From an uncultured Erysipelotrichaceae bacterium (GTDB lineage: Bacteria > Bacillota_I > Bacilli_A > RFN20 > CAG-826), in NCBI GenBank assembly GCA_902797795.1, contig CADBUF010000012.1, forward strand, positions 232-64,231: DNA of 64,000 bases, in the 5' to 3' direction. The notes below the pieces were generated by a model. It did no database searches, was not told the DNA's origin, and worked only from the letters and a program-made list of their open reading frames with translations. Position numbers and translations under genes: made by a program. Within the stretch, counting starts at the first letter, position 1, and each line of letters opens with the position of its first letter. Positions 5,210 through 46,200 of this stretch are shown one piece after another.

Positions 5210-5211
5210 AA

Positions 5212-6303: not shown

Positions 6304-6306
6304 TGA

Positions 6307-7605: not shown

Positions 7606-7608
7606 TTT

Positions 7609-8916: not shown

Positions 8917-8917
8917 A

Positions 8918-11242: not shown

Positions 11243-11246
11243 AGCC

Positions 11247-11696
11247 TTACTCCTCCTTTAAATATGCTTTGATAGCCTTCAGTTGAGATTGAAGACCAGA
11301 ACAGCGGCAAAGATTACCGACAATATAATTATTAATTTCTTCTTCAGATGGATTTTTAAGTTCACGTTTTAAAGCATAAACAGTAAGAGCTAATCCAACA
11401 TTGCAGAATCCACATTGATCAGCCCCTTCTTCTCCAAAATAATGCGCAATTTTCGCGGCTTCTTCTTGAATTCCTTCAATAGTAGTAATGTGTTTGCCTT
11501 CAATTGAGGCACTTAAAATAGAACAGCTCATCATTGGTTTTCCATCAATTAAAAGGGTACAACTACCACATGATGATTCATTACATCCAACTTTGACACT
11601 TTTAATACCATGACTTCTTAAAGTTTTAGCAAGATATTCATTAGGCGCGACATCAAAGCTAACCTCTACATCATTTAAATAAAATTTAACTAACAT
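11247..11696 (-). CDS. [2Fe-2S] iron-sulfur small subunit of molybdenum hydroxylase
   Basis: 149 aa. CNESSCGSCTL and CGFCNVG...CRCSG motifs. Confidence 0.85.
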   Translation of the reverse strand: MLVKFYLNDVEVSFDVAPNEYLAKTLRSHGIKSVKVGCNESSCGSCTLLIDGKPMMSCSILSASIEGKHITTIEGIQEEAAKIAHYFGEEGADQCGFCNVGLALTVYALKRELKNPSEEEINNYIVGNLCRCSGLQSQLKAIKAYLKEE

Positions 11697-12481: not shown

Positions 12482-12485
12482 ACTA

Positions 12486-13860: not shown

Positions 13861-14626
13861 TATGATTATTCTCCTCTACTTTTTTAACATAATAATTCTT
13901 TAAGAAGAAACATAAAGGAACAGCTAAAACTACTAACACTATACACCAATATTGAGATGGAGATAAACCGTTTAACTGTCCTCTTTCATCACCTCTAAAA
14001 AATTCAATAATAAATCTAAAAGTTCCGTAAAAAACCATATAAATTACAAAATTAAAAGAAAAATTATGTTTAAATGCTAAATATATTAGGCACGCAGATA
14101 AGAGCAATAAAAATGCGCATTCGATAAGTTGAGTAGGTAATACTTTATGATCATGGCCAGGAAATAAAATACCTATCGACGAATCTGTATCAACGCCGTA
14201 GCAACACCCCGAAAGAAAACAACCGACTCTACCAATTGCGTGTCCCAAAGTAATAGAAGCTGGTGCAATAATTAAAACCTTGTCCATGATGGGTGAGTTA
14301 TGTCTTAAAAAGTAAAACTTATATATTAAAACAAATGTAGGAACGCCTAATATAAGCCCACCATAGAAAGTCATTCCCCATGTCCATTTTAAATTTGTAT
14401 GGTAAATTGACGATTTGATTGCTTCATATAAATTTTCAAATAAAATGGTGCCAATCATTCCCATTAGGGCTGTACCAACAATGATAAGAAGTACATCGAG
14501 ATAACATGACTTATCTACTTTTCTGAAGTGAAGATAAATAAATAAAAGAATAGTTGCAAAAACAAATCCTAAAAGAATCATTACAACCATCGAAAAACCT
14601 TTGATACCAAATAAATCAGGATACAT
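13850..14626 (-). CDS. lgt: prolipoprotein diacylglyceryl transferase
   Basis: 258 aa membrane protein. Lgt signature GRVGCFLSGCCYG. Confidence 0.8.
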   Translation of the reverse strand: MYPDLFGIKGFSMVVMILLGFVFATILLFIYLHFRKVDKSCYLDVLLIIVGTALMGMIGTILFENLYEAIKSSIYHTNLKWTWGMTFYGGLILGVPTFVLIYKFYFLRHNSPIMDKVLIIAPASITLGHAIGRVGCFLSGCCYGVDTDSSIGILFPGHDHKVLPTQLIECAFLLLLSACLIYLAFKHNFSFNFVIYMVFYGTFRFIIEFFRGDERGQLNGLSPSQYWCIVLVVLAVPLCFFLKNYYVKKVEENNHNEI

Positions 14627-14726: not shown

Positions 14727-15641
14727 ATGAGATATGTTGTCAGTTTAGGTGGCAATGCTTTAGGTAACAATGCTGAAGAGCAAAGACTTTTAGTTAGTAA
14801 TGTTGCTAAATACATTGTCAAATTAATGAAAGATGGTCATGAAGTTGTGATTGTCCACGGTAATGGGCCACAAGTCGGAATGATTAATAATGCATTCACA
14901 GAAGCAAAAGGCGTACCTGATATGCCATTCCCAGAATGTGGAGCAATGAGTCAAGGATATATTGGCTACCATTTGCAAAACGCATTACAAAACGAATTAA
15001 GAGCGCAAGGTGTAAAAAGAAATGTTGCTACAGTAGTAAGTCAAGTCCTTGTAGATAAAAATGATCCTCTCTTTTTAAATCCAACTAAACCAGTTGGCTC
15101 ATTTATGAGTAAAGAAGAGGCAGAAAAAGTAGCTAAAGAAAAAGGCTATACAATGAAAGAAGACGCTGGAAGAGGTTATAGAAGAGTAGTTCCTTCCCCA
15201 CTTCCAATCGATATTGAAGAAAAAGAAATTATCACCACTTTAGTAAAAAACGGTGATGTTGTTATCTGTGCTGGAGGAGGAGGAATTCCAGTCATTAAAG
15301 AAGGCAATAAATTAGAAGGTGTTGCCGCTGTTATTGATAAAGATTATGCTTCTGCTTTAGTAGCTGAACTCGTTAGTGCGGATTACCTTGTTATCCTTAC
15401 TGCGATTGATAATGTTTGTATTAATTACAAACAACCAGACGAAAAGAAACTTGGTAAAGTCAGTGTTGATGAAATCAAGGAATATCTAAAAGGCGACTAC
15501 TTTGCTAAAGGAAGTATGTATCCAAAAGTGAATGCCTGTGTGAAATTCTTAACACGTTGCCCAGGAAAAACCGCAATCATTGCTGCGCTAGAAAATGCTG
15601 CGTTAGCCTTTGAAGAAAAAAGCGGAACCATTATTCGCTAA
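14727..15641 (+). CDS. arcC: carbamate kinase
   Basis: 304 aa. VVSLGGNAL...IVHGNGPQVG amino-acid-kinase-family motifs. GGAG-type RBS. Divergent from the catabolic cluster. Confidence 0.85.
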   Translation: MRYVVSLGGNALGNNAEEQRLLVSNVAKYIVKLMKDGHEVVIVHGNGPQVGMINNAFTEAKGVPDMPFPECGAMSQGYIGYHLQNALQNELRAQGVKRNVATVVSQVLVDKNDPLFLNPTKPVGSFMSKEEAEKVAKEKGYTMKEDAGRGYRRVVPSPLPIDIEEKEIITTLVKNGDVVICAGGGGIPVIKEGNKLEGVAAVIDKDYASALVAELVSADYLVILTAIDNVCINYKQPDEKKLGKVSVDEIKEYLKGDYFAKGSMYPKVNACVKFLTRCPGKTAIIAALENAALAFEEKSGTIIR

Positions 15642-20696: not shown

Positions 20697-22130
20697 TTAT
20701 TTTTTTCCCTTAACAGCGAGTTTAACGCATTCATAGGCTCCATCATAATGACCTTGAGCTTTTAGTTCATTAATGCGCCTACACATATGAGGAATTAGTT
20801 CTTTATCACTTATTAATCTATCAAGCATCGCGTTAGCCTCTTTTTTAGTAGGACATTCAGGAGTGGAGTCACCATTTTCTCTACCGTTTATCGCTCCATA
20901 TACTTCATGACCACCGATGTGTCTCATGAATAATTTTGGAATTGGATAATAAGCTAATTCACTTGGTTTAGTCACTAATAAATCAGTAACAGGCATTAAT
21001 AAGTTTGTCGAATAAACAGCCTCAAAGATATTCTTATTGTATATACAATAAACACCTTCCGCATCTCCATTTTTAATCTCTTTGACTAAGTCTAAGAGTT
21101 TGCCATATTCGTTAAAATAATTCTTGGTCTTAAGTTCAACCTTTTTAATGAGTTTATTATAAACAGTTAAGTGATCACCAAAGTTGATGAATAAGGCCAC
21201 TTTCTTCTCTTTTACATAAGGAAGAAGATATTTGACCATTGAGAGGAACATATCAAAACCCGCTCCCGCTCCTCCTACTGTCATAAGGATACGAATTGGT
21301 TTACCATTAACAACTCGATTAATTCTTCTTTCGTTATCTTCTTCTAAATTAACAAGTAATTCATGGTCGATGAAGCAACCCACCATTTTGAGTTGATCTT
21401 CAGGAATGCCATTGAGTGGTTTTTTATCAAACCCGTTAAGAGTCTTATAACCGAAATAGGCAAAAGGAGTTTGTACAGTGTGAATTGCTCCTTCAGAAAG
21501 ATGTAAGCCCATTGGCCAATTATCAGGAATGGCATTAACGACATGTGTCATACCAGCATGAATTGCGGCTTGGCTAGGCCATACGTGAGTGGCAATATAA
21601 GGGATTTCTTTAGGGATATTTCTAAAAATTGGAACGAGTAGTTCACTATTAGCTTGATCTTTCGCATTGTAGGAAATCTTTTTAAATCCTTCAGAGTTAA
21701 GTGGTTCCCAAACAAGTTTGTTAAATAGTTTAGATTTTTGAGAAATACGACTCGCTAAAGAATATAAATCGTTTTGTTCTCTTATCATTTTACTACCAGT
21801 TGCGTCAAAAGAAGCGAGGTCTAACCAATATGGTTTATAACCAAGCGCTTTAGCGGCACTGGCCATGGCAATAGAGATACGGTAATGTCCAAAACCCATA
21901 CGGATGTTACCAACAATTAAGGCTTTATCATCAAACTTTTGGTTCTCTTTTCCAAAGATGATATTATCCGCATTAATGAAATCTAAAGTTGGAATTGATT
22001 CGAAACTAATCTTGTATTCTTTAGAAGAATCATCACCATATTTTTTTATGTATTTCTTTTTGCTTTTATATGCACCCTTAACCACTTTCTTTGGTTGAGG
22101 ATTATTAAATATTGATTGAGATTTATTCAT
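20697..22130 (-). CDS. GT-B fold glycosyltransferase (GT28 / MGDG-synthase / UgtP-like)
   Basis: 477 aa. N-terminal ALIVGNIRMGFGHYRIS (GxGH motif as in MurG/UgtP) and C-terminal MTVGGAGAG donor-binding-domain start. Confidence 0.5.
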   Translation of the reverse strand: MNKSQSIFNNPQPKKVVKGAYKSKKKYIKKYGDDSSKEYKISFESIPTLDFINADNIIFGKENQKFDDKALIVGNIRMGFGHYRISIAMASAAKALGYKPYWLDLASFDATGSKMIREQNDLYSLASRISQKSKLFNKLVWEPLNSEGFKKISYNAKDQANSELLVPIFRNIPKEIPYIATHVWPSQAAIHAGMTHVVNAIPDNWPMGLHLSEGAIHTVQTPFAYFGYKTLNGFDKKPLNGIPEDQLKMVGCFIDHELLVNLEEDNERRINRVVNGKPIRILMTVGGAGAGFDMFLSMVKYLLPYVKEKKVALFINFGDHLTVYNKLIKKVELKTKNYFNEYGKLLDLVKEIKNGDAEGVYCIYNKNIFEAVYSTNLLMPVTDLLVTKPSELAYYPIPKLFMRHIGGHEVYGAINGRENGDSTPECPTKKEANAMLDRLISDKELIPHMCRRINELKAQGHYDGAYECVKLAVKGKK

Positions 22131-27210: not shown

Positions 27211-27357
27211 AAGCCTTGATAATTATATCATTTTATATAAAATGTACTACTTTTATTTGATGCAGTTTGGAAAAAATAATTATATAAGTGGTGAAATAGA
27301 CACCTAGAATATACGTAATTGTTTGTTTTTTTGTTATAACAAAATATAATTAATGGG

Positions 27358-28383
27358 ATGGAAGAAAAAATAGTAAGTAAACCAGTTAGAAAGCAAAGAG
27401 ATATATTTGATTTAACCAAATATGTTTTGTGTTTCATTGTTATCATGGTCCACAGTTCTTTTTTAAGAGAATATTTGTATCCATGGACTAGAATCATTGT
27501 TCCTATCTACTTCATGATCAGCGCTTTCTTATTTTGTGAGAAATTAAATAGAACTCCAGAAGCAGAACACTGGAAAGTCACGAAGAAATATATATGGAGA
27601 AACGTTACATTATATTTGTTCTGGTTTATTGTCCTCAGCCCAATTACCTTCATTTTTAGAGAAGGGGTGTGGAGTGGAGAAAATAGTCTATTAAGCATCA
27701 CAAAAGTTTTGGAGACTTTATTCTTAACAAATTCATTCTTTTCATCTTGGTTTATCACCGGCTGTATCTATGGGGCTTTAGCAATCTTTTTAACACGTAA
27801 AGTTCCTACTTGGGTATTAGTGACGATTATTTGTGTGGCGTTCACTATATTTTGTTTCTTCTCTTCCTATTCCTTTGTGTTTGGAAGAGTGAACGAATTT
27901 GCTACATTTTATGCGCCTAATGCGATTGTGTGGATGTTACTTGGTGCCTTAGTAGTGAGACATAACATCGAAATAAAGAGCAAAAAAGGATTTATCATTG
28001 TTGGTTCTCTTACCGCTTTAACCTTAGGTTTACTATTTGTAGAATGGTATTTTGTTAGAAGAACTACTGGAGTATTTACCTGGGATACACTTTTCTTTGT
28101 GTTACCACTAAGTTTTCTCACTTTTGTTTTAATTAAGGATATCCCTGTTAAAGTTAAACATGCGAAAACAATGAGAAAACTAAGCACTACTCTTTACACT
28201 ACACATTTTTCACTTATTGCAGTTTTTAATTTTATATTAGAAAAGATCTGCCCTGATTTGAACGCATACCTTTATACATTTATCCTCTTTGCGGCCTCCG
28301 CAATAGTGGCTCATCTCATCTCATATTTAATTTTCTATCTCGAAAAGAAACCGCATCTTAGCTTTTTGCGTTACTCATATTAA
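27358..28383 (+). CDS. acyltransferase family 3 membrane protein (second, divergent copy)
   Basis: 341 aa. FDLTKYVLCFIVIMVHSSF motif, polytopic. Confidence 0.7.
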   Translation: MEEKIVSKPVRKQRDIFDLTKYVLCFIVIMVHSSFLREYLYPWTRIIVPIYFMISAFLFCEKLNRTPEAEHWKVTKKYIWRNVTLYLFWFIVLSPITFIFREGVWSGENSLLSITKVLETLFLTNSFFSSWFITGCIYGALAIFLTRKVPTWVLVTIICVAFTIFCFFSSYSFVFGRVNEFATFYAPNAIVWMLLGALVVRHNIEIKSKKGFIIVGSLTALTLGLLFVEWYFVRRTTGVFTWDTLFFVLPLSFLTFVLIKDIPVKVKHAKTMRKLSTTLYTTHFSLIAVFNFILEKICPDLNAYLYTFILFAASAIVAHLISYLIFYLEKKPHLSFLRYSY

Positions 28384-28395
28384 GGAGAGAATCTT

Positions 28396-30267
28396 ATGGA
28401 ACATTCAAAACTATTCTTTTTAGCCTTATTCCCACTTTTATTGACTTCTTGTGGAAATGAACCTACCCCAACCCCCACTCCAGGATATATTCCTGTGACT
28501 AGTATCACTACGATGGAGCCAGAATTCACTCTTGAAATCGGTGAAGAACATGAACTCCAATACGAAATCAAACCAGAAAATGCGACTTATAAGTCTGTTA
28601 TCACCTCAACGTTATCTACAAATATCGCTCTTGAAGGAACAACAGTTACCGCATTGTCCGCCGGAGAAGCCACTATTGTTCTTGAAACCGTAGATGGAGG
28701 CTATACGCTTATTTATACAGTCACTGTTAATGATGATGAACCAGTATTACAGGAAATTGATATTACTGGCGATTACAAATCTGTTTATTTTGTTGGCGAA
28801 GAATTTGACCCAACTGGTTTAATGGTTATGGCAATTTATGACGAAGGTGAACCAGTTGATGTCACTAGCGAATGTGAATTCAGTGGCTTTGATTCTTCTG
28901 AAGTTGGAATTATCACTATTACCGCTACTTATAAAGATAAGTCAGCAGACTTTGAAGTAGCTATTGAAGAAAAAAATCCTACAAGAGGTGTGGTTACTTT
29001 TAAACTAGGTTCAAAAGCTTCTAAAACTCCAAAAGGATATTTCTTATCTTTTAATCATGACAATGAATATTTCACTAACTCTGCTAAAGTGCTTAATAAT
29101 GACTTAAAAAAACTTTCTTATGGTGTAGCTTTATGTAACGTAACTGCAAAAAGCGGCGAATATTTCTATACTGCTATGGGATACGAAGATTATCTTTCTG
29201 AAGGTTACGACGAAGAGTCATTTGACAAGGTATCTTATTCTATCGCTCATAAAAATATTGGCGATTATGATTTAGTAGCCCTTTCTATTCGTGGCCAGGG
29301 TTATGGCACTGAATGGGCTAATAACTTTATTGTCGGAAAAGAAGGCAACCACAAAGGATTTGATGAATGCGCAAATAAGATTTATGACACATTAAAAGAA
29401 TATATTTCAAATCACTCAACCTCTAATTTCAAACTATGGGTCAGTGGTTATTCAAGAGGTGGCGCAATTGCTAACGTTTTAGCAAGTAAACTCTTAAAAG
29501 AACGTAACGAAATCGAAATTAGCCAAGATAACTTATTTGTTTATACTTATGAAGCTCCAAATGCTTTAACTCTAGAGAATGCTGTTGCGTATGAAAACGT
29601 TTTTAATTTCATTACTGAAAAGGATTTCGTACCTAATGTTGCTCCAAGTAAATATGAACTATATAGATGCGGTGTTGATATAAGTATCGATGAAGGAAAA
29701 GATATCGATGAATGTTTTGCCAAATTCGATCCAGAAGTCACTCTTCCTAAATTCACACCAGTTAGTCCTGAAGAATCTTCTAGTTTCTATTACGCTAGCG
29801 AAGAAGAATTAATCGACAAATTAATGGATGCCCTAGTTGAAGATGTTGAACTTGATGTTAAACATAAAATTTCAACTAGAGAACTCTACGCAGATACCTT
29901 TGAAAATGAAATTGCTTATTTCTTTGAAGTCTTTATGTCATTAAATGACGAAACCTTTAGTGATATCATCGCTAAGGCAAAAGCATTAGATATGTCCAAA
30001 ATTTTTACGATGATTACCACTGATAGCGGTATCTATAATTTCATTGAACCTATCTTAAGAGAGCATGAATTCCCTTATGATGAGGCAAAATTAACCGCGA
30101 CATGTGATGCAGCTAGGGATTTAATCCAATCAAAAGTATCTTTCTTCATTAGTAATTTTGTTGATTTCTCTACTATGTCACTCAAACAAAATCGTATTGA
30201 TAGCGTTATGCGCTGCGCCTATATCCATTTTCCAGAGGTTATCTATTCTCTAATTGCTGATTTATGA
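28396..30267 (+). CDS. secreted lipoprotein: Ig-like (Big_2-type) domains + class-3 lipase domain
   Basis: AAGGAGAG RBS. Signal peptide with lipobox LLTSC. Beta-rich repeats (TALSAGEATIVLETVDGGYTLIYTVTV). Lipase_3 motifs YDLVALSIRGQGY and nucleophile elbow VSGYSRGGAIA. Confidence 0.7.
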   Translation: MEHSKLFFLALFPLLLTSCGNEPTPTPTPGYIPVTSITTMEPEFTLEIGEEHELQYEIKPENATYKSVITSTLSTNIALEGTTVTALSAGEATIVLETVDGGYTLIYTVTVNDDEPVLQEIDITGDYKSVYFVGEEFDPTGLMVMAIYDEGEPVDVTSECEFSGFDSSEVGIITITATYKDKSADFEVAIEEKNPTRGVVTFKLGSKASKTPKGYFLSFNHDNEYFTNSAKVLNNDLKKLSYGVALCNVTAKSGEYFYTAMGYEDYLSEGYDEESFDKVSYSIAHKNIGDYDLVALSIRGQGYGTEWANNFIVGKEGNHKGFDECANKIYDTLKEYISNHSTSNFKLWVSGYSRGGAIANVLASKLLKERNEIEISQDNLFVYTYEAPNALTLENAVAYENVFNFITEKDFVPNVAPSKYELYRCGVDISIDEGKDIDECFAKFDPEVTLPKFTPVSPEESSSFYYASEEELIDKLMDALVEDVELDVKHKISTRELYADTFENEIAYFFEVFMSLNDETFSDIIAKAKALDMSKIFTMITTDSGIYNFIEPILREHEFPYDEAKLTATCDAARDLIQSKVSFFISNFVDFSTMSLKQNRIDSVMRCAYIHFPEVIYSLIADL

Positions 30268-31778
30268 AAAAAATAACCCTATTTATTACTTCATTACTAT
30301 TTAGCGCACTGTCTTTTTCAGCGTGCTCTTCATCAATGAATGGAAGTAATAACCCTATTATTCCTCAAGGAGAAACTAACCCTGAAGAAGGAACTCCTGA
30401 AGATAGTGGCGAACAAGGTCAAGGAGAAGAACAAGGACAAGGTGAAGAAGAAAATCCACCAGAGGATGACGATCCTGCTAACTATAAAGTGATCGACACA
30501 TTCTCAAAAAGAATGCCCGCTGAATTTGAACCAGTGTCAATGGTTAAAGTGGTCTATCCAAACATGATGCCACTAAGCGCATATAAAACAATATCAGAAG
30601 ATATTCCTCTTCTTGTTTTGGTTAATCCTGATAACAGTAATAAATCAAGAATCTCAAAAGCAAAAAGTGAATTCGCTAACGCTGGCATAACTAACGCAAC
30701 ATATATCGATATGCCGCTTGATTATGATTATGCTGCCTGGGTTAGAGATTTTTCACCGTTTTATATCTTTGATGATAAATCAGTAACCGCTGTTGATTTC
30801 ACTTATAATCGTAATCGTTATGAACAAAACGCTGTTCCTAAAAAAATAGCGGAATATTTAAATATCCCATATAGCAAAATGAACATCACCCATACCGGTG
30901 GTAATTTAATGCAAGATGGAAGAGGCACCGCTTTTAGTGATGACCTTGTTGTTAGTGAAAACGGCAATAATAAAAGTAATGTAATTAATAAAATGAAAGA
31001 ATATACCGGTACTGATAACTATGTTATCACTATCGATCCTCAGGGTGACTATATTGCTCATATTGATTGCTGGGCAAAAATAGTAGCCCCAGATAAAATC
31101 ATCGTTGCTAAACTACCAAAGTCTAATAATAGATATCAATATTACGAAGATGTCGCTAATGAACTTGCTAACACCACTTGTGCATATGGATATAAATATA
31201 AAATCTATCGTGTTGAAGAACCTGGTGGAACTACTGTTGCCCCATACACCAATTCATTAATCGTGAACAATAACGTTTATATGCCTTTAGGCGACAATGA
31301 AACATATAATCAAAAAGCTCTTGCGGTTTATAAAGAGGCATTGCCTAGTTATAACATTAAAGGAATCAAAGGTTATAATTCTGGACATGATCAAGAATTT
31401 TTGAATACTGACGCACTTCATTGCCGCACTCATGAAATTCCAAATCAAGATATGCTCTTTATTGATTCAAGAGAAGTTTATCAAGGTTCTGTCGTGTTAA
31501 AGGATGAATATGTCGTTAAAACAAACATTGTTAGCTATGCAAGCAAAGATGTAAATGAAGAAGATGTGAATATCTATTATTCCATCAATGATGGTGAATA
31601 TGTTAAAGCTAACATGAATAAATATAAAGACACTACTAACTTCACATTCTCATTTACTAATCTCACCATAGGTGATGATGTTAAATATTATATTGAAGCC
31701 ACTGACAGTGGAAGCAACTATTCAATCGATCCAACTTGCGGAAAACTTGATCCACATCACTTCACAATATCAGCATAA
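30264..31778 (+). CDS. secreted lipoprotein of the PAD_porph family (agmatine deiminase / peptidyl-arginine deiminase-like) with acidic low-complexity linker and extra C-terminal domain
   Basis: ATGA overlap with lipase gene. Lipobox SFSAC. GEQGQGEEQGQGEEENPPEDDD linker. Guanidino-modifying fold motifs WVRDFSP, HIDCW, and catalytic-Cys motif TDALHCRTHEIP near the C-terminus of the catalytic domain. Confidence 0.6.
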   Translation: MKKITLFITSLLFSALSFSACSSSMNGSNNPIIPQGETNPEEGTPEDSGEQGQGEEQGQGEEENPPEDDDPANYKVIDTFSKRMPAEFEPVSMVKVVYPNMMPLSAYKTISEDIPLLVLVNPDNSNKSRISKAKSEFANAGITNATYIDMPLDYDYAAWVRDFSPFYIFDDKSVTAVDFTYNRNRYEQNAVPKKIAEYLNIPYSKMNITHTGGNLMQDGRGTAFSDDLVVSENGNNKSNVINKMKEYTGTDNYVITIDPQGDYIAHIDCWAKIVAPDKIIVAKLPKSNNRYQYYEDVANELANTTCAYGYKYKIYRVEEPGGTTVAPYTNSLIVNNNVYMPLGDNETYNQKALAVYKEALPSYNIKGIKGYNSGHDQEFLNTDALHCRTHEIPNQDMLFIDSREVYQGSVVLKDEYVVKTNIVSYASKDVNEEDVNIYYSINDGEYVKANMNKYKDTTNFTFSFTNLTIGDDVKYYIEATDSGSNYSIDPTCGKLDPHHFTISA

Positions 31779-31796
31779 GAAAAGCCCACAAATGGG

Positions 31797-32720
31797 CTAT
31801 TTCTTTTTCTTTTTCTCTGTGTCTTCTTTATGAATCTGTTTCATTTCTTCTGTGTCTTGTTTGCCAGAAGTTTCGTTATAGAAGTTAACAATAATAGAGG
31901 TGATGACCGCCACAACGACAATGCCGTACATACCAAGAAGCACAGTAACTACTCTACCAATTAACGTTTTAGCAGTGAAATCGCCAAAACCAATCGTAGT
32001 GACAACCGCAAAAGAGTACCATAATCCATCACCAAAAGTTGTAATCGATTCTTCAAAATAGGCAAAGACAATCGCAGAAGCCACTACCATGGTTAATAAA
32101 CCAAGGAGAACTTCTAAAGCGAAAGTACGGATGATGATTTTTAATAATGTCTTTAGTTTTAATTGTAAGAAAGCGTTTGCAAGAACTTCGATTAAAGAAG
32201 CAATAATGACAATAAAACAAACTATCATAATTGGGGCAAACATTTCCGTAGGTCCATAAGGCACAAATAAACCAAGAGCGAGTAAAGCAAATAAAGTAAT
32301 AATAAGAGCGTTTAAAACAATACTTCTAACCGTCGGCTTTTGAATGATTTTAAAGATACGGGAAATAATAATAGAGATACAGAATATTCCCCCGCATGCA
32401 GAATAACAATAGGAGTTATCTTTACCAAAGTAGGCAATTACGCCTAGAGAAATATTTAGAACAAATAAAAAGGCAAATCTTATTAAATTAGTTCTTGTTC
32501 GATCTCTTAAATACGTAACGAATCTTGATAAACCTAAAACAATAAAGATTAAAAACATATAAACCGACACCATAGTAGCGTCAGGTGGAGTTAATCTTGC
32601 GTAATATAAGGCCATGATTGAAAAGGCCATGATGATAGTTGAAATAGCACTACCAAGAGTGAGCAAAAGCACCCTTACAGTGGTTTCAGTTAATTTTATT
32701 CTTCCGTGTTTTTTACTCAT
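31797..32720 (-). CDS. potassium-channel-like membrane protein (paralog A)
   Basis: 307 aa. Multi-TM N-terminus, pore helix + selectivity filter WYSFAVVTTIGFGD followed by an inner helix, Lys-rich C-tail. Confidence 0.65.
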   Translation of the reverse strand: MSKKHGRIKLTETTVRVLLLTLGSAISTIIMAFSIMALYYARLTPPDATMVSVYMFLIFIVLGLSRFVTYLRDRTRTNLIRFAFLFVLNISLGVIAYFGKDNSYCYSACGGIFCISIIISRIFKIIQKPTVRSIVLNALIITLFALLALGLFVPYGPTEMFAPIMIVCFIVIIASLIEVLANAFLQLKLKTLLKIIIRTFALEVLLGLLTMVVASAIVFAYFEESITTFGDGLWYSFAVVTTIGFGDFTAKTLIGRVVTVLLGMYGIVVVAVITSIIVNFYNETSGKQDTEEMKQIHKEDTEKKKKK

Positions 32721-32741
32721 GCTATCACCTCAACTTGTCGC

Positions 32742-34586
32742 TTATTTATTATACGCGTTAGAAAGATATTCTCCAATCGCGTTAAAATCATAGAATTTAG
32801 AAACATCTGGCAAATCTGGGTTTAGTGGGTTTTCTTTAATCTCTAATTCAAAGTCAACAGGAACACCACTATCAATGTTTTCACCTTTGGCGTTAGATAA
32901 ACATTTTTCAGATGAATGGGAGAACATTAATCCTTCCACTGTGGTGTTAAGCTCAACAGTGCAACTACCGCCACCACTTCTCTGGCCTAATGTTTTATAA
33001 CCCATTTCTTTTAATAAAGAAGGTAATAAGTTACCACAAGAGAAAGAGAAATTAGTGGTAATGATTCCATAATTAAAGTTAAAGTTAATCGCTTCTTCGT
33101 AATCTAAAGAATCCCATTTACCATCTAAATTAATATCGACAAGAACGTGTTCAGTGTTACGGTTATGGTGACTCACATTATTTAAACTAATTGAGGATCT
33201 CGCCCCATTCATTAAACCGATAATGCCGTGGACAATAGCAGTGCTGCCTCCTCCGTTAGCGGATAAATCTAAGACGAGGTTTTTCGCATTATCTTCTTTA
33301 GCTTGATAGAGTTTTGATCTCACAAAAGCATATGTATCAGTATTAACAGGCGCTTCACTTGGATCTTTGCTTTTTTTATAGAATTCATCCCAACTACGAG
33401 CGTCATACGCAAAGCTATCAAAACCAATATAAGCGGTTTCTGTCGCGTTATCGTAATAATAATAGTTAGCCCCATCAGTGTAACCTGGGAAAAGATTTCT
33501 TCTTTGGGCAACTAAAAGCATTGCTAACATATGTTTTTTAGCATCAACTTTAAACGCACCATCTATAGCCATCGCGATTTCTTTAGCGTATTCTTCTTGA
33601 TCGAGTTTATCGATAGAGTATTGTCCTAAATCTACATCAGCGTTACTAATTAATGACTTAGTGTGACCTCCATCATACATCCCACCCATAAACAAGTTAT
33701 AGCCTTCGTAATATTTTTCTTTGTCACTAGAAAGAAGGAGTTCTCTAATTTTTGGGTAATATTCTAAAAGTAATCCATTCGTACCTAAAGAAAGGAGATT
33801 GTTATCGCCAAAATTAAGTTGAGAAGTTAAACCACGGAAATGATCAAAGGTGAGACATATTTGTCCATAGTTATAAGTGATAATATCGTTTTCTCTAGGA
33901 GAAGAAAAATCTTTAAGAATTGAATAATAACCTTCGTAATAATCAGGAACGCGTTTCACTCCATTAGAGAGGATTCCTTGATAATCAATCACGTAGATAT
34001 CTTTACCATTATAAGCAACGTTATATAACCAACTCGCACCAGAGAAGATGCCTAGTAATTGAAGAGGAACATAAACGTTATCCCCTTCTGAATGGATATC
34101 AATCTTGTAGTCATTGAGATTGATGATTTTTTCAACGTAACCATGGCTAGAAGAATAATCCAGTTTTAAAAAAGATTGTCCGTTAAAATTAATTGCCTCT
34201 TTATGATTAGAAAATGAATCAGTGCCACTAAAGGCAAAGATGTTATATTTGGAATCAAATCTTAAATAGTCATCGTTATTATTGATGAGTTGATAAACAT
34301 AATCATCTCTTAGTAAGAGATAGTCATCATGAGCAAAGAATTCCTTATAATATTCTTTAACATTAACATAAGGGATATTTGGAGTGTTTTGATAAAACCT
34401 CACTGGGAACAATTTGTCGACTTTATTATTTTCACGGTAGATGTTAACCCCTTTTATCACATATGGCTCAACATCGATATAGGCGACAGTGATGTAATTA
34501 TCAAGAGAATCACTACACCCAGTTAAAAACATCATTGGAGAAGATAATAACGCGGTTAATAAAGCTAATTTTGATTTGATTTTCAT
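32742..34586 (-). CDS. S41-family (tail-specific/C-terminal processing-like) peptidase lipoprotein
   Basis: 614 aa. Lipobox LTGCSD. LDLSANGGGS motif resembling the S41 IDLRxNxGG catalytic-region motif. Confidence 0.5.
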   Translation of the reverse strand: MKIKSKLALLTALLSSPMMFLTGCSDSLDNYITVAYIDVEPYVIKGVNIYRENNKVDKLFPVRFYQNTPNIPYVNVKEYYKEFFAHDDYLLLRDDYVYQLINNNDDYLRFDSKYNIFAFSGTDSFSNHKEAINFNGQSFLKLDYSSSHGYVEKIINLNDYKIDIHSEGDNVYVPLQLLGIFSGASWLYNVAYNGKDIYVIDYQGILSNGVKRVPDYYEGYYSILKDFSSPRENDIITYNYGQICLTFDHFRGLTSQLNFGDNNLLSLGTNGLLLEYYPKIRELLLSSDKEKYYEGYNLFMGGMYDGGHTKSLISNADVDLGQYSIDKLDQEEYAKEIAMAIDGAFKVDAKKHMLAMLLVAQRRNLFPGYTDGANYYYYDNATETAYIGFDSFAYDARSWDEFYKKSKDPSEAPVNTDTYAFVRSKLYQAKEDNAKNLVLDLSANGGGSTAIVHGIIGLMNGARSSISLNNVSHHNRNTEHVLVDINLDGKWDSLDYEEAINFNFNYGIITTNFSFSCGNLLPSLLKEMGYKTLGQRSGGGSCTVELNTTVEGLMFSHSSEKCLSNAKGENIDSGVPVDFELEIKENPLNPDLPDVSKFYDFNAIGEYLSNAYNK

Positions 34587-34632: not shown

Positions 34633-35475
34633 TTATATAAATAATTGTTTGATTGTTTTGACAATCTTTCGTCTTTTTCCTTGATATATTCCATCACCAG
34701 AATATAGAACCTTAAATCCACACTTATCTAAAACCCTTAAGCTTGCCTTGTTGTTTTCAAGAACAACACCATAGACTTCTTTTAAATTTGTGTTTCTCTT
34801 TAAATATCCTAAGAAAAGATTTACGGCTTCTGTTGCATACCCTTTTTTGGTAAATAGTTTAGCGATGTGATAGCCTATTTCCCATCCTTCTTTTATTTTT
34901 ACTAATTGAATGTAACCAATATTTGCATTATCGTCTTTTCTAATAATTACGTATACAAACGGACCGTTTTCGCTACCATAGTTTTTAATAATTTGATCTA
35001 CCACTTCGCTAGCTTCTTCTAAAGATTCAAAGACTTCATCTGGAGAAAATTTTCTGTTGTCTTCGTCTTGTGAATTACGAAACACATCATAATACATGGA
35101 TTGATTCATTTTAGCTATATAGAGTCTATTTCCATCAATAAGTTTTTCACTTGTGTTTAATAACTCTTTGTTAACAATGTCTTTCCAATCTTGAAAATGA
35201 GAAAGAACACGTAATATAAATACGGTTTTTGTTGATTCGTTAATTTGATAAATAGCAATGTGATTTAAGCAAACTAAATAGTAAGACCTTGCATAATCAA
35301 ATAATGAATTTCTAATTTTGATTCCGCGGCTTGGAAAAGTAGATAAAGATTCCAATTTATCAAATATTTTTTCAATGTAATGAGTCGCAGCATTTATATT
35401 ATCAGCAGAAATAAAAGACTTGATGTTCTCCAAGTCTTTAAAGGCAGAATTAGAAATAATAACATTATATGTCAT
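34633..35475 (-). CDS. fusion protein: ParE/RelE-family type II toxin domain (N-term) + GNAT N-acetyltransferase domain (RimL/Acetyltransf_3-like, C-term)
   Basis: N-terminal about 95 aa has ParE/RelE hallmarks (FPSRGIKIRNSLFDYARSYYLVCLNHIAIYQINESTKTVFILRVLSH). C-terminal part has GNAT motifs (IGYIQL...GYATEAV...NKASLRVLDKCGFK). 4-nt overlap with the upstream antitoxin gene. Confidence 0.65.
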   Translation of the reverse strand: MTYNVIISNSAFKDLENIKSFISADNINAATHYIEKIFDKLESLSTFPSRGIKIRNSLFDYARSYYLVCLNHIAIYQINESTKTVFILRVLSHFQDWKDIVNKELLNTSEKLIDGNRLYIAKMNQSMYYDVFRNSQDEDNRKFSPDEVFESLEEASEVVDQIIKNYGSENGPFVYVIIRKDDNANIGYIQLVKIKEGWEIGYHIAKLFTKKGYATEAVNLFLGYLKRNTNLKEVYGVVLENNKASLRVLDKCGFKVLYSGDGIYQGKRRKIVKTIKQLFI

Positions 35476-35720
35476 AGCAATTTCTTTTTTGCCTCGGACA
35501 AAGGCATCATTCTTCCATTTGCAATATCCGCAATACCTTCATTAATTTTTTGCATTAAATCAATACTTCGATATAGTTCGTCTAAAACATGAGAAGCGAC
35601 AATAGCGGTATCTTCTTTACCATTTACAGTAATATATACAGGCTCTTGCGTTAATTTGCACAGCTCACTTATTTCTTTGTATTTGTTTCTTAAGTCTGCA
35701 CTTGGTCTAATAATCGCCAT
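35472..35720 (-). CDS. Phd/YefM-RelB-like type II antitoxin
   Basis: 82 aa. MAIIRPSADLRNKYKEISE...PVYITVNGKEDTAIV resembles Phd/YefM antitoxin fold. Overlaps the toxin gene by 4 nt. Confidence 0.55.
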   Translation of the reverse strand: MAIIRPSADLRNKYKEISELCKLTQEPVYITVNGKEDTAIVASHVLDELYRSIDLMQKINEGIADIANGRMMPLSEAKKKLL

Positions 35721-38028: not shown

Positions 38029-38054
38029 AAAAGCGGGATTCCCGCTTTTTCTCT
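38029..38054 (+). terminator. rho-independent terminator after cls (possibly bidirectional)
   Basis: AAGCGGGAttCCCGCTT hairpin followed by TTTTTCTCTT. Confidence 0.7.
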
Positions 38055-38971
38055 TATTCCTTCTTGTTTTGTTCTTCAAGTTCCTTGATTTGTTTTTCAA
38101 GTCGCTCAATATCTCTTTGTTCTCTTTTCTTGTTCATTTCGTTATAGAAGTTAACGATGAAGGAAGTGAATACCGCGACAACGGCGATGCCACTTATTCC
38201 CAAGAAAACTGATAGAATTCTTCCAAAAGTAGTAACTACATATACATCACCAAAACCAATCGTGGTGATAACCGCAAATGAATACCACAAAGAATCAACA
38301 TAACTCACAATATTTGGTTCCACTAAAGTGAAATATAAGGAACATAAAATAACAAGGATAGATAGAGTTAAGATAATCTCATTAATAAGTGACTTTTTAA
38401 TGATGTTACTAATGACATTGAATTTTAATATGTTTTGATAAGGGAAGAGCAAATTCTTACCACTAGAAACAATGATCATCGAAGAAAAACATAGAACGAT
38501 AAAATTAGAATTACTAACTGAGGTAGCGTGTTTACCATAGATTTCTGGGAAAAAGAACACAAAAGAGAAGAGGAACGCTAAAGTGATACATAAACAGTTG
38601 AATATGATTGATTGTAAAGAACGATCTTCTCTTATCTTAAGTAAACGATAAACAACGATTGTTAAAGAATATAAGAACATCGAAGTAATAAGGAAATATA
38701 TGCTATATTTAGTAAGTGAGACTAAGACAGCAAGAACAAAAATAAAGGCGGTTAAGAAAATGTTTTCAAACATGTTCTTTTTAAAATTTGAAAGGTGTAA
38801 ACCAACGCGATTAATACCTAAACATACTAAGGCAATTGATAATGTGTAAAGACCAACGTAACTATCCTCCACTGAAAAAGCAACTGTGGCTATACAAAAA
38901 CCAATCGCGATTATTCCACTAATTAAGCCAAATATGTAGTAAGGGTTTTTTCTGTTTCCAACTTTTTCCAT
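38054..38971 (-). CDS. potassium-channel-like membrane protein (paralog B)
   Basis: 305 aa. WYSFAVITTIGFGD filter, same architecture as 31797-32720. Charged coiled-coil-like C-tail (EQRDIERLEKQIKELEEQNKKE). Confidence 0.65.
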   Translation of the reverse strand: MEKVGNRKNPYYIFGLISGIIAIGFCIATVAFSVEDSYVGLYTLSIALVCLGINRVGLHLSNFKKNMFENIFLTAFIFVLAVLVSLTKYSIYFLITSMFLYSLTIVVYRLLKIREDRSLQSIIFNCLCITLAFLFSFVFFFPEIYGKHATSVSNSNFIVLCFSSMIIVSSGKNLLFPYQNILKFNVISNIIKKSLINEIILTLSILVILCSLYFTLVEPNIVSYVDSLWYSFAVITTIGFGDVYVVTTFGRILSVFLGISGIAVVAVFTSFIVNFYNEMNKKREQRDIERLEKQIKELEEQNKKE

Positions 38972-43236: not shown

Positions 43237-46200
43237 TTAATCGTCCCTTTCAAAGTAATCTAAGGAAATCAAAGACTTAATAGCCTTAGTTAAATATTCT
43301 TGGTCAGTAATTGGCCATTTATAGCCTAAGCGGTAAAGCGCTTTAATCGAAAATGAATTATCGGTAAGGATATAAGAGTGAGAATGATTATCACTACTTG
43401 TATAAGTAATTAAAGCAGACACTTTCTTGCTCTTAACGTCATCATTTGTAGCTTTAATAACCTCATCCATAAATTCTTTATCCCCAACTTTTTCAATCTT
43501 TAAGCCACAGTCATTCATTGCTTCAATCACATCACCCATTTCTACAGGATGAGAATTTGCACTATGGAAGACGGTGAATTCTTTTGGAGCGGTCGCTAAA
43601 ACGAGAATGCTCTTAGCGACTTCATCAATTGGAGAGAAGTCGGTCGTTTCATCCAAAGAAGAGATTGGGAATTTTCCTAAAGCGTAATAACCTCGTAGAG
43701 ATCGCATAAATCCGTTAGTAATAGAGTTAATTTGGAATTCTCCATCGCTTTGACGTGACATCAAATTACCGACACGAACAATCTTTCCATCTAATCCATC
43801 TTTATTAATTGCCTCTAACATCGCTGCTTCCGCCATAAACTTAGAATGGATATATTTGTTAGAAATATCTTGTCCGATGTCTAATTGGTTTTCTTTCATA
43901 CGGAAGTTTTCAGCGAACTTATGGTCAATATTTTCGCCCGCAACTGATAAAGTGGAGATTTGAATCATTCTCGCATTATGCTTTAAAGCGATTCCAATGA
44001 GGTTTTTCACCCCTCCAACATTAATTTTTTCAATGATATCATCATTTGAGAAATGTTTAACAATCGCTGCTGAATTAATAAGTGTGTCAAATTTGATATC
44101 TTTGAGTTTATCGGTTAAGTTCTCGTCTGCAATATCTCCATCAACGATATGAATAAAGCTATCAAGTTCTTCAGTAAATGGAGAATCGAAATAATATTCA
44201 AGTAATAGAGAAAGTCTACTATGTAAGGAGATTTGTTTACTTCTTACTAACACATATGTTTCTATGTGCTGATCAATTAATTCTTTAAGAATATGAATTC
44301 CTAAAAAGCCAGTCGCACCAGTTAAAAGGACAACACCTAAATCTCTTTCTTTATGAATATCATCAACATATTCAATCGTGTTTTTATTAAGCGCTGCATA
44401 TTTATTATCCTTAGATTCTTCTACTGCTTTTTCTTCTTCCACCACCTCTTCATCTTTATTAATTAATGAAGCAAGTTCAAGGGCAGTAGAATGTTCAAAA
44501 ACATCTTTATAGGCAATTGGTAAGCCCTCTTTAAGAGCGAGCATTGCAACTTTTGAAGCGCTTAAAGAAGTACCACCTAATTCAAAGAAATCTTCATCGA
44601 TTCCGATATCTTGTTTTCCAAGGGCTTTAGCAAAGATTTCACAAATCGTTTTTTCAGTTTTGTTTCTAGGTGCTTTCTTTTCTTTATTAGAGGAAGTAGA
44701 AACAATTTCTGGTAATGATTTCTTATCAATCTTGCCATTAGGAGTAAGAGGGATACGATCAAGTTGCATCATTGCTTTAGGAATCATATATGGGGTAAGT
44801 GATTTTGCCATATATGAAGTTAAAGTTTCTTTATCTAAAGGTTTTGACGCGGTGTAATAAAGCGCTAAATAGTCGCCATCAACATCATTATTTTTCACTA
44901 AAATGACGCATCTAGTGACGTCTGGATGAGAATTACAAACGTTTTCAATCTCATCTAATTCAATTCTTAATCCATGTAATTTTATTTGGTTATCAAGACG
45001 TCCAAAGAATTCGGTGTTACCTTCATTATTCATTCTAGCAAGGTCACCACTTCGATAGGCTCTTTTACCGTTTAAATCAATAAATGAGGCTTTGGTTTTT
45101 TCTTCAAGTTTATAATAGCCAATACCAACACTATCACCGGCAATAGTTAAATCACCAATCGCATTAATTGGTAAAATATGACCAGCCTTATCCAAGATGT
45201 AATAGCTAGTGTTAGCAACAGGTTTACCAATAGTGACATATTTATCAGTAATAAAGGTCATTGATGAAGTAATCGTTGTTTCTGTTGGACCATAACCATT
45301 ATCAATCAGGCAATCAATGCCATGTTTTCTTATACGATCCACTAATTCATAAGGAACAGCCTCTGCTCCCATATCAAGCACTTTGAAGTTCTTTAATGCT
45401 TCAACAAATTCTAGAGTATCTAAAACGTTAGAAACGTATGAAGGAGTTAAGAACATAATGTTAACTCCATATTTCTTTAATGTTTGTGATAATAAAAGTG
45501 GGTTTTCAATCTCTTCTTCACTAGCGATCACTGCTTGATAACCATGAGAGAGAATGACACATTCTTCTTGTAAAGAAGCATCAAAAGCAAAAGAAGCAAA
45601 CGAGCAGCTAGACACTTTGTCTTTAATAATGCGATATTCGTTAGTGGCTAAATTAGCGCCATCTAAGACATAATTTGATAAATTCTTATGACTAATCATC
45701 ACCCCTTTAGGTTTACCAGTGCTACCAGAGGTATAGATGATGTAACATAGTGAATCTAGTGGGATACCAATATTTAAATTGCTTGTCTTATTAGATTTCA
45801 AAATGTCTTCAATTAAAAGAACTTTAATCTTTGTCTTTTTAATGAGGTCATGTTTTTCTTTTTCAATATCTTTAGTGGTTATTAAAATCTTCGCGTCACT
45901 ATCGGTGATGATATATTCAATACGATCATCAGGATATTTAGGATCAATAGCGACAAAGGCTCCACCCGATTTAAGAATACCTTCTCTAACGAAATAAGCA
46001 CTTACTCTTCTAGGCATGAGCATGATTACTCTTTCACCAAGAGCGACTTTATCTTCAGACAAAGCATGAGCGACTTTATTCGCGTTTTCGTTAAATTGTT
46101 TATATGTATATTCTCCATCAACACCCGCTAAAGCGAGTCTATTTGGATATTTCTCCACTATTTCTTCTACGATCTTAGGGTAGGCTTTATTTGAAGGTTT

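Follow-up and report, generated by a model that had tools for sequence, protein, structure and literature searches.

A putative PPAD-type peptidylarginine deiminase lipoprotein encoded next to a class-3 lipase-type lipoprotein in an uncultured gut bacterium of the Bacilli

The stretch of DNA analyzed here, referred to as the window, covers 64 kb of a contig from an uncultured Erysipelotrichaceae bacterium. It contains two lipobox-bearing open reading frames on the + strand, ORF A (28396-30267, 623 aa) and ORF B (30264-31778, 504 aa), related respectively to class-3 lipases and to PPAD, the peptidylarginine deiminase of Porphyromonas gingivalis. The features of the locus, along with the evidence on which each was assigned, are the following:

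27216..27243, + strand: candidate promoter TTGATA-16-TAAAAT (10/12 matches), the best-scoring + strand site, 5' of three co-directional genes
27358..28383, + strand: Acyl_transf_3 membrane acyltransferase, 341 aa (Pfam PF01757, 65 bits)
28384..28389, + strand: RBS GGAGAG, 6 nt upstream of the lipase start codon (read from the sequence)
28396..30267, + strand: ORF A, lipoprotein with two Ig-like domains, a class-3 alpha/beta-hydrolase body and a helical C-terminal region, 623 aa (Pfam, homologue alignment, model)
28492..28962, + strand: Big_2-like (residues 33-95) and Big_3 (residues 126-189) domains of ORF A (Pfam)
30264..30267, + strand: ATGA overlap between the deiminase start codon and the lipase stop codon (visible in the sequence)
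30264..31778, + strand: ORF B, putative PPAD-type peptidylarginine deiminase lipoprotein, 504 aa (Pfam, NCBIfam, alignment, structure model)
30264..30326, + strand: lipoprotein signal peptide of ORF B, lipobox SFSA-C21 (motif kept across the Bacilli clade)
30327..30509, + strand: disordered acidic tether of ORF B, residues 22-82, with an EQGQGE repeat (pLDDT <50 at residues 18-62)
30510..31448, + strand: catalytic alpha/beta-propeller domain of ORF B, residues 83-395 (residue mapping to PPAD)
31449..31775, + strand: C-terminal IgSF-type beta-sandwich of ORF B, residues 396-504 (pLDDT >95, alignment, Foldseek)
31783..31798, no strand assigned: hairpin AGCCCAcaaaTGGGCT, flanked by T-runs on both strands, terminator-like and bidirectional, between convergent genes

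An earlier, sequence-only reading of this DNA had described two lipobox genes overlapping by ATGA, and both the lipoboxes and the overlap are borne out; the identical 4-nt overlap is also present in two related loci, L081 and L082. With an RBS, this overlap and one terminator-like site 3' of ORF B, no + strand terminator-like site being found ahead of 31783, the lipase and the deiminase are likely co-transcribed in this species and likely share one transcription unit. This unit probably starts with the Acyl_transf_3 gene, one gene before the lipase, a point omitted from the sequence-only reading. The stop codon of this gene (TAA, 28381-28383) lies 12 nt 5' of the lipase ATG, and the order acyltransferase, lipase, deiminase is also found in L082. 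The promoter call is weak, as promoter-like sites are not more frequent in the region than in shuffled sequence. Purifying selection acts on both genes, with strain-to-strain dN/dS values of 0.24 for the lipase and 0.088 for the deiminase.

The N-termini read MEHSKLFFLALFPLLLTS-C19 for the lipase, with the lipobox LLTS-C19, and MKKITLFITSLLFSALSFSA-C21 for the deiminase. When a PROSITE-style lipobox pattern was applied to all ORFs of at least 100 aa in the 64-kb window, only three passed: the lipase, the deiminase and the adjoining S41 peptidase. The lipobox cysteine is conserved among homologues of the lipase and of the deiminase alike, and an lgt gene is located in the same window (PF01790 LGT, 109 bits, 13850-14626). 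Both proteins bear the sequence hallmarks of an Lgt/LspA-type lipoprotein, with a basic n-region and a hydrophobic h-region ahead of the lipobox, in line with the lipid anchoring predicted earlier. Downstream of the anchor, the number of EQGQGE copies varies between the window, L081 and L082, and the proteins of the Bacilli clade range from 421 to 669 aa with a linker of variable length.

ORF A contains a Lipase_3 domain (PF01764, residues 320-417, 47 bits versus a cut-off of 22) preceded by the two Ig-like domains, of which Big_3 scores 42 bits and Big_2 20.5 bits, just under its gathering score. These Ig-like domains are found only in relatives 96% and 90% identical, other family members being about 450 aa long and devoid of them. 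Across 75-78 homologues, the nucleophile elbow G351-Y-S353-R-G355 is invariant, and D410 (at least 93% conserved) and H611 (invariant or nearly so) are the candidate partners of a catalytic triad. The model is confident over residues 193-623 (pLDDT >90), and its fold neighbors are the Rhizomucor miehei lipase (4TGL), the Aspergillus niger feruloyl esterase A (1UWC) and plant DAD1-like PLA1 (7X0C/7X0D), all scoring equally and matching only loosely (E about 2e-6, TM about 0.5, 14-19% identity). ORF A shares with them the Lipase_3 domain, the GYSRG elbow and a matching alpha/beta-hydrolase core; it differs by its N-terminal lipid anchor, its two Ig-like domains and the position of the candidate histidine H611, about 200 residues past the aspartate and beyond a large helical insertion. 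ORF A would thus be a separately anchored class-3 alpha/beta-hydrolase, with lipids, phospholipids and feruloyl esters as candidate substrates.

[quoted passage not shown] The best PDB matches obtained with phmmer are the PPAD entries 4yt9/5ak7 (E=7e-76, 259 bits, query residues 83-502 versus chain residues 13-419), an alignment that reaches residue 462 of PPAD, and BLASTP to PPAD gives 35% identity over 421 residues. With the AlphaFold2 model (pLDDT 89.1, pTM 0.84), the top seven Foldseek matches are all PPAD (E about 6e-50, TM 0.91, rmsd 2.1 Å, about 427 columns) and extend over both domains. As judged by these alignments, the deiminase is a full-length PPAD homologue spanning the catalytic and IgSF domains, with the same succession of a five-bladed alpha/beta-propeller and an IgSF beta-sandwich. 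The sequence-only reading had noticed an additional C-terminal domain and called for its structure prediction; AlphaFold2 confirms it as a confident beta-sandwich over residues 396-504. This domain also shows a weak resemblance to CBM_56, below threshold. The same reading had placed the protein architecturally closer to PPAD than to AguA, and the evidence is stronger than it claimed. Agmatine deiminases in the PDB reach at most 38 bits (versus 259), and their fold matches (E about 1e-21, TM 0.71-0.79, about 360 columns) concern the catalytic domain only. By score comparison, both sequence and fold place the deiminase nearer to PPAD than to any of the agmatine deiminases.

All 12 PPAD residues which have been probed by mutation or assigned from structures are identical in the window deiminase. 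The pairs (window/PPAD) are W159/W127, D162/D130, R183/R152, R185/R154, T211/T180, G213/G182, Y263/Y233, H266/H236, D268/D238, C269/C239, N330/N297 and C387/C351. They include the Cys351-His236-Asn297 triad with the Asp130/Asp238 guanidinium clamp (C387, H266, N330, D162 and D268 here), the carboxylate site Arg152/Arg154/Tyr233 (R183, R185 and Y263 here), the gatekeeper cysteine and the equivalents of Gly182 and Trp127. The motifs listed by the earlier reading could all be located, WVRDFSP carrying W159 and D162, HIDCW carrying H266, D268 and C269, and ALHC carrying C387; a lack of conservation of the catalytic residues, which it had named as grounds for refutation, was not observed, all being identical to those of PPAD. 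The Michaelis loop is similar to that of PPAD, its sequence DPxG[DE]YIxH being conserved. In PPAD, R152 is indispensable and forms a salt bridge to the substrate carboxylate, R154 and Y233 completing the site; Y233 sterically blocks endo-substrates, and R154 is credited with favoring peptidyl-Arg over free Arg (PMC4487231).

Like PPAD, the window deiminase has an extracellular location, predicted here from its lipoprotein signal. Its host is a monoderm gut organism of the Bacilli class, in contrast to the oral Bacteroidota pathogen P. gingivalis, and export differs as well. The last residue of the deiminase (504) corresponds to about residue 464 of PPAD, where the IgSF domain ends; as the protein stops there, it has no T9SS C-terminal domain. 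A PPAD-type pro-peptide is likewise absent, the N-terminus being instead a lipobox anchor followed by the acidic disordered tether. The T9SS domain and the pro-peptide are marks of the Porphyromonas secretion route, not of the catalytic family. In P. gingivalis, Arg-gingipains create the substrates of PPAD, which depends on them (PMC4487231). No gingipain partner is visible within the 64-kb window, neither Peptidase_C25 (the gingipain family) nor trypsin-like genes being found among its ORFs of at least 150 aa, a point against the reading of ORF B given below.

The PPAD-type family extends far beyond this locus: clustering at 50% identity gives 341 groups (E<=1e-30), and databases label its members "agmatine deiminase family protein". 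The homologues from 31 ruminant-gut Bacilli MAGs form one clade amid Bacteroidales homologues, and every close relative is from a MAG of rumen or forestomach digesta. The nearest Bacteroidales homologues (P0122-P0125 and neighboring representatives) are 43-48% identical to the window deiminase. Although from another phylum, rumen and hindgut Bacteroidales proteins, for example L030 and the P0125 cluster (labeled [quoted passage not shown]), possess the two-domain core and 12/12 residues, and P0125 and P0131 start with a lipoprotein-type signal, as in the window deiminase. Many Bacteroidales homologues are 560-2500 aa long with additional C-terminal regions, and at least one human (Hadza) Bacteroidales MAG encodes a homologue with 12/12 residues. 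The 12 functional residues are near-invariant in 150 representatives of the 50% identity clusters and identical in all 80 genome loci, except for R154, replaced by glutamine in 8 Bacilli loci. Glutamine takes the place of this second arginine in roughly one in four members of the Bacilli clade, and substrate preference may therefore vary within it.

[quoted passage not shown] From the sequence and established lipoprotein biology, the protein would be exported by the Sec pathway, lipidated by Lgt on Cys21 and cleaved from its signal peptide by signal peptidase II, the mature enzyme being held at the outer face of the membrane through a flexible acidic linker about 60 residues long. By homology, Cys387 would act as the nucleophile and His266 as the acid/base residue, together with Asn330, while Asp162 and Asp268 would clamp the guanidinium group. 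Arg183, Arg185 and Tyr263 would select peptide C-termini; their PPAD counterparts hold the substrate by its free C-terminal carboxylate and its last peptide carbonyl. By analogy with PPAD, the enzyme is expected to be calcium-independent and inactive on internal arginines and on agmatine. Trypsin-like proteolysis, in the lumen of the gut or rumen or at the surface of the cell itself, could supply its substrates as peptides with a terminal Arg. The cell may benefit from the ammonia set free, from a loss of charge on peptides or on its own surface proteins, or from peptide conditioning.

Other activities can be envisaged for this fold. Agmatine deiminases (AgDI/AguA; TIGR03380; PDB 2JER, 3HVM, 6B10, 6NIB) belong to the same superfamily and to the same PF04371, which includes both activities, and they share the catalytic Cys/His/Asn and the two aspartates with the window deiminase. 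An extracellular enzyme converting luminal agmatine into N-carbamoylputrescine, for polyamine scavenging (as the sequence-only reading had suggested) or for energy, would also agree with the database labels of close homologues, with weak NCBIfam matches to agmatine deiminase models (E about 1e-14) and with an AA_kinase (carbamate-kinase-like) gene about 14 kb away. This kinase gene, however, adjoins a purine-degradation-type cluster and not the deiminase, and an AguA-type agmatine deiminase was ruled out at 51.1 bits versus a cut-off of 381.8 for the AguA equivalog TIGR03380 (for PRK13551, 52.4 bits versus 483), PPAD having seven times the bit score of any solved agmatine deiminase and a fold that is clearly more similar. 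Unlike ORF B, agmatine deiminases are single-domain enzymes (PMC4487231) with no signal peptide and a closed active site. They also lack equivalents of R152, R154 and Y233 (PMC4487231), all three of which are conserved here as R183, R185 and Y263, although agmatine has no carboxylate for this arginine pair to bind. Neither putrescine carbamoyltransferase, carbamate kinase nor an agmatine/putrescine antiporter adjoins the deiminase in the window, and no agmatine-pathway gene occurs among the 10 most recurrent neighbor families of the 31 related loci. Polyamine scavenging is thus unsupported, and we regard agmatine deimination as very improbable. An ecto-arginine deiminase acting mainly on free L-arginine or very short Arg compounds at the cell surface, whose ammonia and citrulline would be taken up and used for ATP, is unlikely as well, though less so. 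In its favor, PPAD shows some activity on free L-arginine (PMC9453162), the residue favoring peptidyl-Arg is a glutamine in 26 of 120 close homologues, and the window contains the carbamate-kinase-like gene mentioned above. Against this, R185, the R154 equivalent, is retained in the window protein, no ornithine carbamoyltransferase was found within the window, and the open, solvent-exposed PPAD-type active site is conserved with its Michaelis loop.

The gene pair itself could be taken as a dedicated host-directed surface module acting on host lipids and proteins, given the ATGA translational coupling, the lipoprotein nature of both products, their likely common transcription unit and the maintenance of this arrangement in L081 and L082. 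Beyond the window, adjacency occurs only in these two loci which, being about 95-96% identical to it at the DNA level, are from the same species and thus add no independent support. The lipase is next to the deiminase in none of the 31 related Bacilli MAG loci, in which the genes on either side of the deiminase mostly run the other way, and distant lipase homologues (40-46% identity) stand alone, without a neighboring deiminase. The linkage is recent and lineage-specific and not a conserved functional module; with a pairing limited to such nearly identical contigs, the partnership and the host-facing role put forward by the sequence-only reading are both unsupported, the latter being speculative for relatives that derive from rumen or forestomach digesta and not from host tissue. 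A dedicated host-directed module is accordingly very improbable. In the rumen or forestomach, feed and microbial peptides are more obvious deiminase substrates than those of the host.

Reviews describe the protein-citrullinating PPAD as unique to P. gingivalis, and the 2015 structure paper proposed that domain fusion and exo-citrullination arose in the Porphyromonas/gingipain setting (PMC4487231). Here, a gut bacterium of the Gram-positive type, without T9SS sorting or a visible gingipain, encodes a two-domain PPAD-type enzyme in which no functional residue is missing, and the family of this enzyme comprises hundreds of sequence clusters derived from MAGs of the rumen and gut. A tentative, and so far rather doubtful, extension is that the catalytic and IgSF module is the core of a large and old family of surface exo-citrullinating enzymes of gut anaerobes, not a gingipain/T9SS-tied invention of Porphyromonas, and that it crossed between Bacteroidota and ruminant-gut Bacilli, where it gained a lipid anchor. 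Direct medical relevance is low for the source organism, probably a ruminant commensal. If the predicted activity is true, the label "agmatine deiminase family protein" would need to be changed, protein citrullination would be known from a wider range of bacteria, and differently anchored, calcium-independent C-terminal-Arg deiminases would become open to study. If the family is active, C-terminally citrullinated peptides would be made continuously in gut communities without P. gingivalis, which would reopen the question of the bacterial sources of citrullinated antigens.

Both ORFs lie on the + strand at the positions proposed by the sequence-only reading, and the ATG of the deiminase overlaps the TGA of the lipase, as an ATGA at 30264-30267.

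Gene layout of the lipase-deiminase locus
27358-28383, + strand, Acyl_transf_3 gene, its stop 12 nt upstream of the lipase start
28396-30267, + strand, lipase ORF, 623 aa
30264-31778, + strand, deiminase ORF, 504 aa
31783-31798, terminator-like hairpin just 3' of the deiminase stop, the sole + strand candidate

A ribosome-binding site (GGAGAG) is found between the end of the Acyl_transf_3 gene and the lipase start, and the acyltransferase, lipase and deiminase genes form a + strand block surrounded by genes mostly on the - strand. The Acyl_transf_3 gene, upstream of the lipase, is probably the first of the transcription unit. A scan of the window for Rfam families (gathering threshold) and tRNAs returned zero matches. 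The same gene order is found in two further genome loci, L081 and L082, both sharing 95-96% DNA identity with the window and thus belonging to the same species. The deiminase gene has a dN/dS of 0.088 when the window is compared with a strain whose DNA is 96% identical.

The deiminase was compared with the peptidylarginine deiminase of Porphyromonas gingivalis (PPAD). Pfam assigns residues 84-393 to PAD_porph. In a search of all PDB sequences, five different sequences of P. gingivalis PPAD rank first; the strongest (E=7e-76, 259 bits) aligns query residues 83-502 with chain residues 13-419, whereas agmatine deiminases reach 38 bits at most in the same search. By BLASTP, the deiminase shares 35% identity with PPAD over 421 residues. 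A 101-sequence alignment was the input for an AlphaFold2 model (pLDDT 89.1, pTM 0.84; residues 80-504 above 95). When this model was compared with the PDB using Foldseek, the seven top matches are all PPAD (E ~6e-50, TM 0.91, rmsd 2.1 Å, ~427 columns), followed by agmatine deiminases (E ~1e-21, TM 0.71-0.79, ~360 columns). Bit scores and TM values thus agree with the earlier proposal of an architecture nearer to PPAD than to the agmatine deiminase AguA. The extra C-terminal domain noticed in that reading matches the PPAD IgSF domain in the confidently modeled region. Since the PPAD alignment spans this domain and stops two residues short of the deiminase end, its end coincides with that of PPAD's IgSF domain, without the CTD of the T9SS, PPAD's secretion route. 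This C-terminal beta-sandwich (residues 396-504, window 31449-31775) also weakly resembles CBM_56, with a score below threshold for the deiminase (18 bits) and above the gathering score of 27 for the homologue P0014 (35 bits), and BhCBM56 (5t7a) is likewise among the Foldseek matches.

PPAD numbering was transferred to the deiminase via a phmmer alignment with PPAD as the anchor sequence, covering all residues that Goulas et al. mutated or assigned from the substrate complex (PMC4487231). All 12 are identical, among them those in the motifs noticed by the sequence-only reading (W159 and D162 in WVRDFSP, H266, D268 and C269 in HIDCW, and C387 in the HC motif).

Functional residues of PPAD and their equivalents in the deiminase
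W127, W159: substrate binding and structure
D130, D162: guanidinium binding
R152, R183: salt bridge to the C-terminal carboxylate; indispensable
R154, R185: binding of the carboxylate and last peptide carbonyl
T180, T211: contact with D130 and H236; not essential
G182, G213: closure of the pocket bottom
Y233, Y263: carboxylate binding; block of endo-substrates
H236, H266: acid/base
D238, D268: guanidinium binding
C239, C269: channel gatekeeper
N297, N330: nucleophile support
C351, C387: nucleophile

In PPAD, R152, R154 and Y233 hold the free C-terminal carboxylate and the last peptide carbonyl, making it an exo-deiminase, and lie outside the positions given as equivalent in the Enterococcus faecalis agmatine deiminase (PMC4487231). 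They are hence the residues that discriminate between the two enzymes. By homology, the predicted catalytic apparatus and carboxylate-recognition site are those of PPAD. The deiminase displays every catalytic-site and architectural feature of the PPAD type, whereas the Porphyromonas-specific T9SS CTD and pro-peptide are missing, with a predicted lipid anchor in their place.

Two other activities have to be weighed against this assignment. The few named proteins among the best 120 of 2,470 homologues are called 'agmatine deiminase family protein [Bacilli bacterium]', and a carbamate-kinase-like AA_kinase gene (14727-15641, + strand) was considered as a possible component of a pathway for agmatine or arginine deimination. 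This reading was rejected, since the gene lies 14 kb away and neighbors a large gene cluster of a type associated with anaerobic purine/xanthine degradation, and no carbamoyltransferase was found within the window. The AguA equivalog model of NCBIfam scores the deiminase at 51 bits for a cut-off of 382. An agmatine deiminase is highly improbable and, as judged from its sequence, the protein is not one in the AguA sense. The possibility of an ecto-deiminase of free arginine is raised by variation at R154, a residue credited with the preference of PPAD for peptidyl-arginine over free arginine (PMC4487231). At the equivalent position (deiminase residue 185, window 30816-30818), 8 of the 31 Bacilli MAG loci and 26 of 120 close homologues have Gln, and Arg is retained in the window protein. 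The 12 residues are otherwise kept in all 80 genome loci, and they are near-invariant in the best 150 of 341 cluster representatives. We consider an ecto-deiminase acting mainly on free arginine unlikely.

The purine-type cluster itself (568-13085, - strand) encodes a PALP enzyme, two xanthine-dehydrogenase-like sets (FAD, 2Fe-2S and molybdopterin subunits), a DHODH/DPD-like protein with 4Fe-4S domains, two amidohydrolases and a MobA-like transferase.

The assignment of the deiminase to the PPAD type leaves its location to be considered. Each protein has a basic N-terminus, then a hydrophobic segment, then a lipobox (LLTS-C19 for the lipase, SFSA-C21 for the deiminase). When a PROSITE-style lipoprotein pattern was applied to all window ORFs of at least 100 aa, only three passed. 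These are the lipase, the deiminase and, next to them, an S41 peptidase (614 aa, opposite strand), all neighbors within 28396-34586. The lipobox Cys is kept in homologues of each of the two proteins, in line with the signal peptides recognized at first reading, and an Lgt gene (13850-14626) is encoded within the window. Bacilli-clade deiminases have a conserved lipobox, then a low-complexity linker of variable length and a conserved start of the catalytic domain. In the window, this acidic tether (30327-30509) contains an EQGQGE-type repeat whose copy number varies among the window, L081 and L082 (~95% identical strains), and residues 18-62 are disordered in the AlphaFold2 model. From these sequence features and established lipoprotein biology, the deiminase would be exported, lipidated at Cys21 and displayed on a disordered acidic tether of ~60 residues.

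The lipase contains Big_2 (just below threshold), Big_3 and Lipase_3 domains (Pfam) and belongs to a family of ~80 lipoproteins, most of them ~450 aa long, with Lipase_3 and without Ig domains. The two Ig-like domains are limited to the 96% and 90% identical relatives. Conservation is complete or almost complete at G351-Y-S353-R-G, D410 and H611. For residues 193-623, which make up the body of the protein, the model has pLDDT above 90, whereas the N-terminal Ig domains fall below 50 because just two homologues carry them. The closest folds, Rhizomucor lipase, Aspergillus niger feruloyl esterase A and plant PLA1, are loose matches (TM ~0.5, E ~2e-6). The protein is a class-3 alpha/beta-hydrolase and, in a rumen setting, could equally well be a feruloyl esterase or a lipase.

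The sequence-only reading also took the two genes as a co-operonic, host-facing unit. Co-transcription is likely in the window's species. The lipase adjoins the deiminase in 0 of 31 Bacilli MAG loci, the pair was found in none of the 80 genome loci searched, and lipase homologues of 40-46% identity are standalone, with no deiminase beside them. A conserved operon partner was likewise sought in the 31 Bacilli loci and none was found, the recurrent neighbors being unrelated genes mostly on the opposite strand (DUF349, ThrE, DUF3810, DUF3737, ZIP, ABC ATPase, thioesterase and TetR). Given such neighbors, a conserved lipase-deiminase functional module is unsupported, and a dedicated host-directed module, as the gene overlap and shared lipobox signals might suggest, is very unlikely. 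The S41 peptidase lipoprotein was considered as a substrate-generating partner and rejected, since the two genes lie on opposite strands and, of the 31 loci, a single one (L018) has an S41-like gene alongside the deiminase.

Other genes surround this locus. Paralogous ~305-aa membrane proteins with an Ion_trans_2 domain (K+ channel pore) are encoded 5 kb apart at 31797-32720 and 38054-38971 (both - strand). Within 34633-35720 (- strand), a 280-aa protein fuses a ParE toxin domain to a GNAT acetyltransferase, and an 82-aa ORF overlapping upstream is possibly a Phd-type antitoxin; L081 has an extra PhdYeFM antitoxin gene (3336-3581) between the deiminase and the ion-channel gene. A two-module NRPS of 2,411 aa (43237-50472, - strand) with 2 condensation, 2 adenylation and 2 carrier domains and a NAD_binding_4 reductase end has the layout of dipeptide-aldehyde-type synthetases and adjoins a 4'-phosphopantetheinyl transferase gene (50478-51092, - strand). 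The locus at 57630-63197 (- strand) may be of defence type: it encodes a 1,027-aa protein with a calcineurin-like phosphoesterase and a sub-threshold nSTAND3 NTPase (25 bits for a cut-off of 27), with an AAA_14 ATPase gene and an ORF of 364 aa without Pfam match nearby. A 477-aa protein (20697-22130, - strand) consists wholly of DUF6937 and DUF6938, its gene flanked by those of a melibiase-like glycoside hydrolase and a glutamate dehydrogenase.

The deiminase family is large. An exact look-up of the window protein returned zero records, and the nearest homologue, P0001 (97% identical), was used as stand-in. A word-indexed search recovered 2,470 proteins at E<=1e-10, the others among the best 120 being 58-71% identical. 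Among representatives clustered at 50% identity, an exhaustive search gave 341 clusters at E<=1e-30, and nearly all of the best 150 align to the query end to end, across the catalytic and Ig domains. Copies 60-70% identical occur in 31 MAGs (species-representative genomes) labeled Bacilli, Erysipelotrichaceae or Bacillales, the closest being just 70% identical. Where named, their hosts are all ruminants (buffalo, sheep, goat, yak and water deer), and the source organism is probably a ruminant commensal. Homologues with 32-45% identity are encoded by at least 49 Bacteroidales MAGs, whose sources are rumen, horse and reindeer samples plus a single Hadza human-gut sample. PPAD-type homologues are thus present in horse-faeces and reindeer MAGs and in the Hadza MAG (L059, 8001-9431, CAKUVI010000004.1), which retains 12/12 functional residues.

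A neighbour-joining tree, midpoint-rooted and without support values, groups the query with all 31 Bacilli sequences in a single clade. Closest to this clade are Bacteroidales/Bacteroidaceae sequences (L030, P0125) and unlabelled metagenomic representatives, and P0125, like P0131, starts with a lipoprotein-type signal. P. gingivalis PPAD falls in the opposite half with most rumen Bacteroidales. The pattern is compatible with, and no proof of, a single old transfer between Bacteroidota and the Bacilli lineage.

[quoted passage not shown] By analogy with PPAD, it would be calcium-independent and attack neither internal arginines nor agmatine. In P. gingivalis, PPAD relies on Arg-gingipains for exposing C-terminal arginines (PMC4487231). 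As no gingipain-like Arg-specific protease was found among window ORFs of at least 150 aa, substrates would probably be supplied by community proteolysis.

PPAD has been called 'unique among prokaryotes for P. gingivalis' (PMC9453162), with homologues given only for P. gulae and P. loveana (PMC13539308), and a phylogenomic study confined to Porphyromonas assigned the PAD lineage to these three species (PMC10394638). According to a 2020 preprint, just one bacterial PAD had been characterised to date. Our literature search retrieved no characterised PPAD-like enzyme outside Porphyromonas and no description of a Gram-positive, lipoprotein-anchored or rumen PPAD-type enzyme; the bacterial PADs of the citrulassin type were set aside as kin since they belong to a different family (PF03068). 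The deiminase appears to be a PPAD-type enzyme that occurs in a phylum where none was expected and is anchored in another way. By homology, it would contradict both the much-repeated claim of PPAD uniqueness and the proposal that the domain fusion arose in connection with gingipains.
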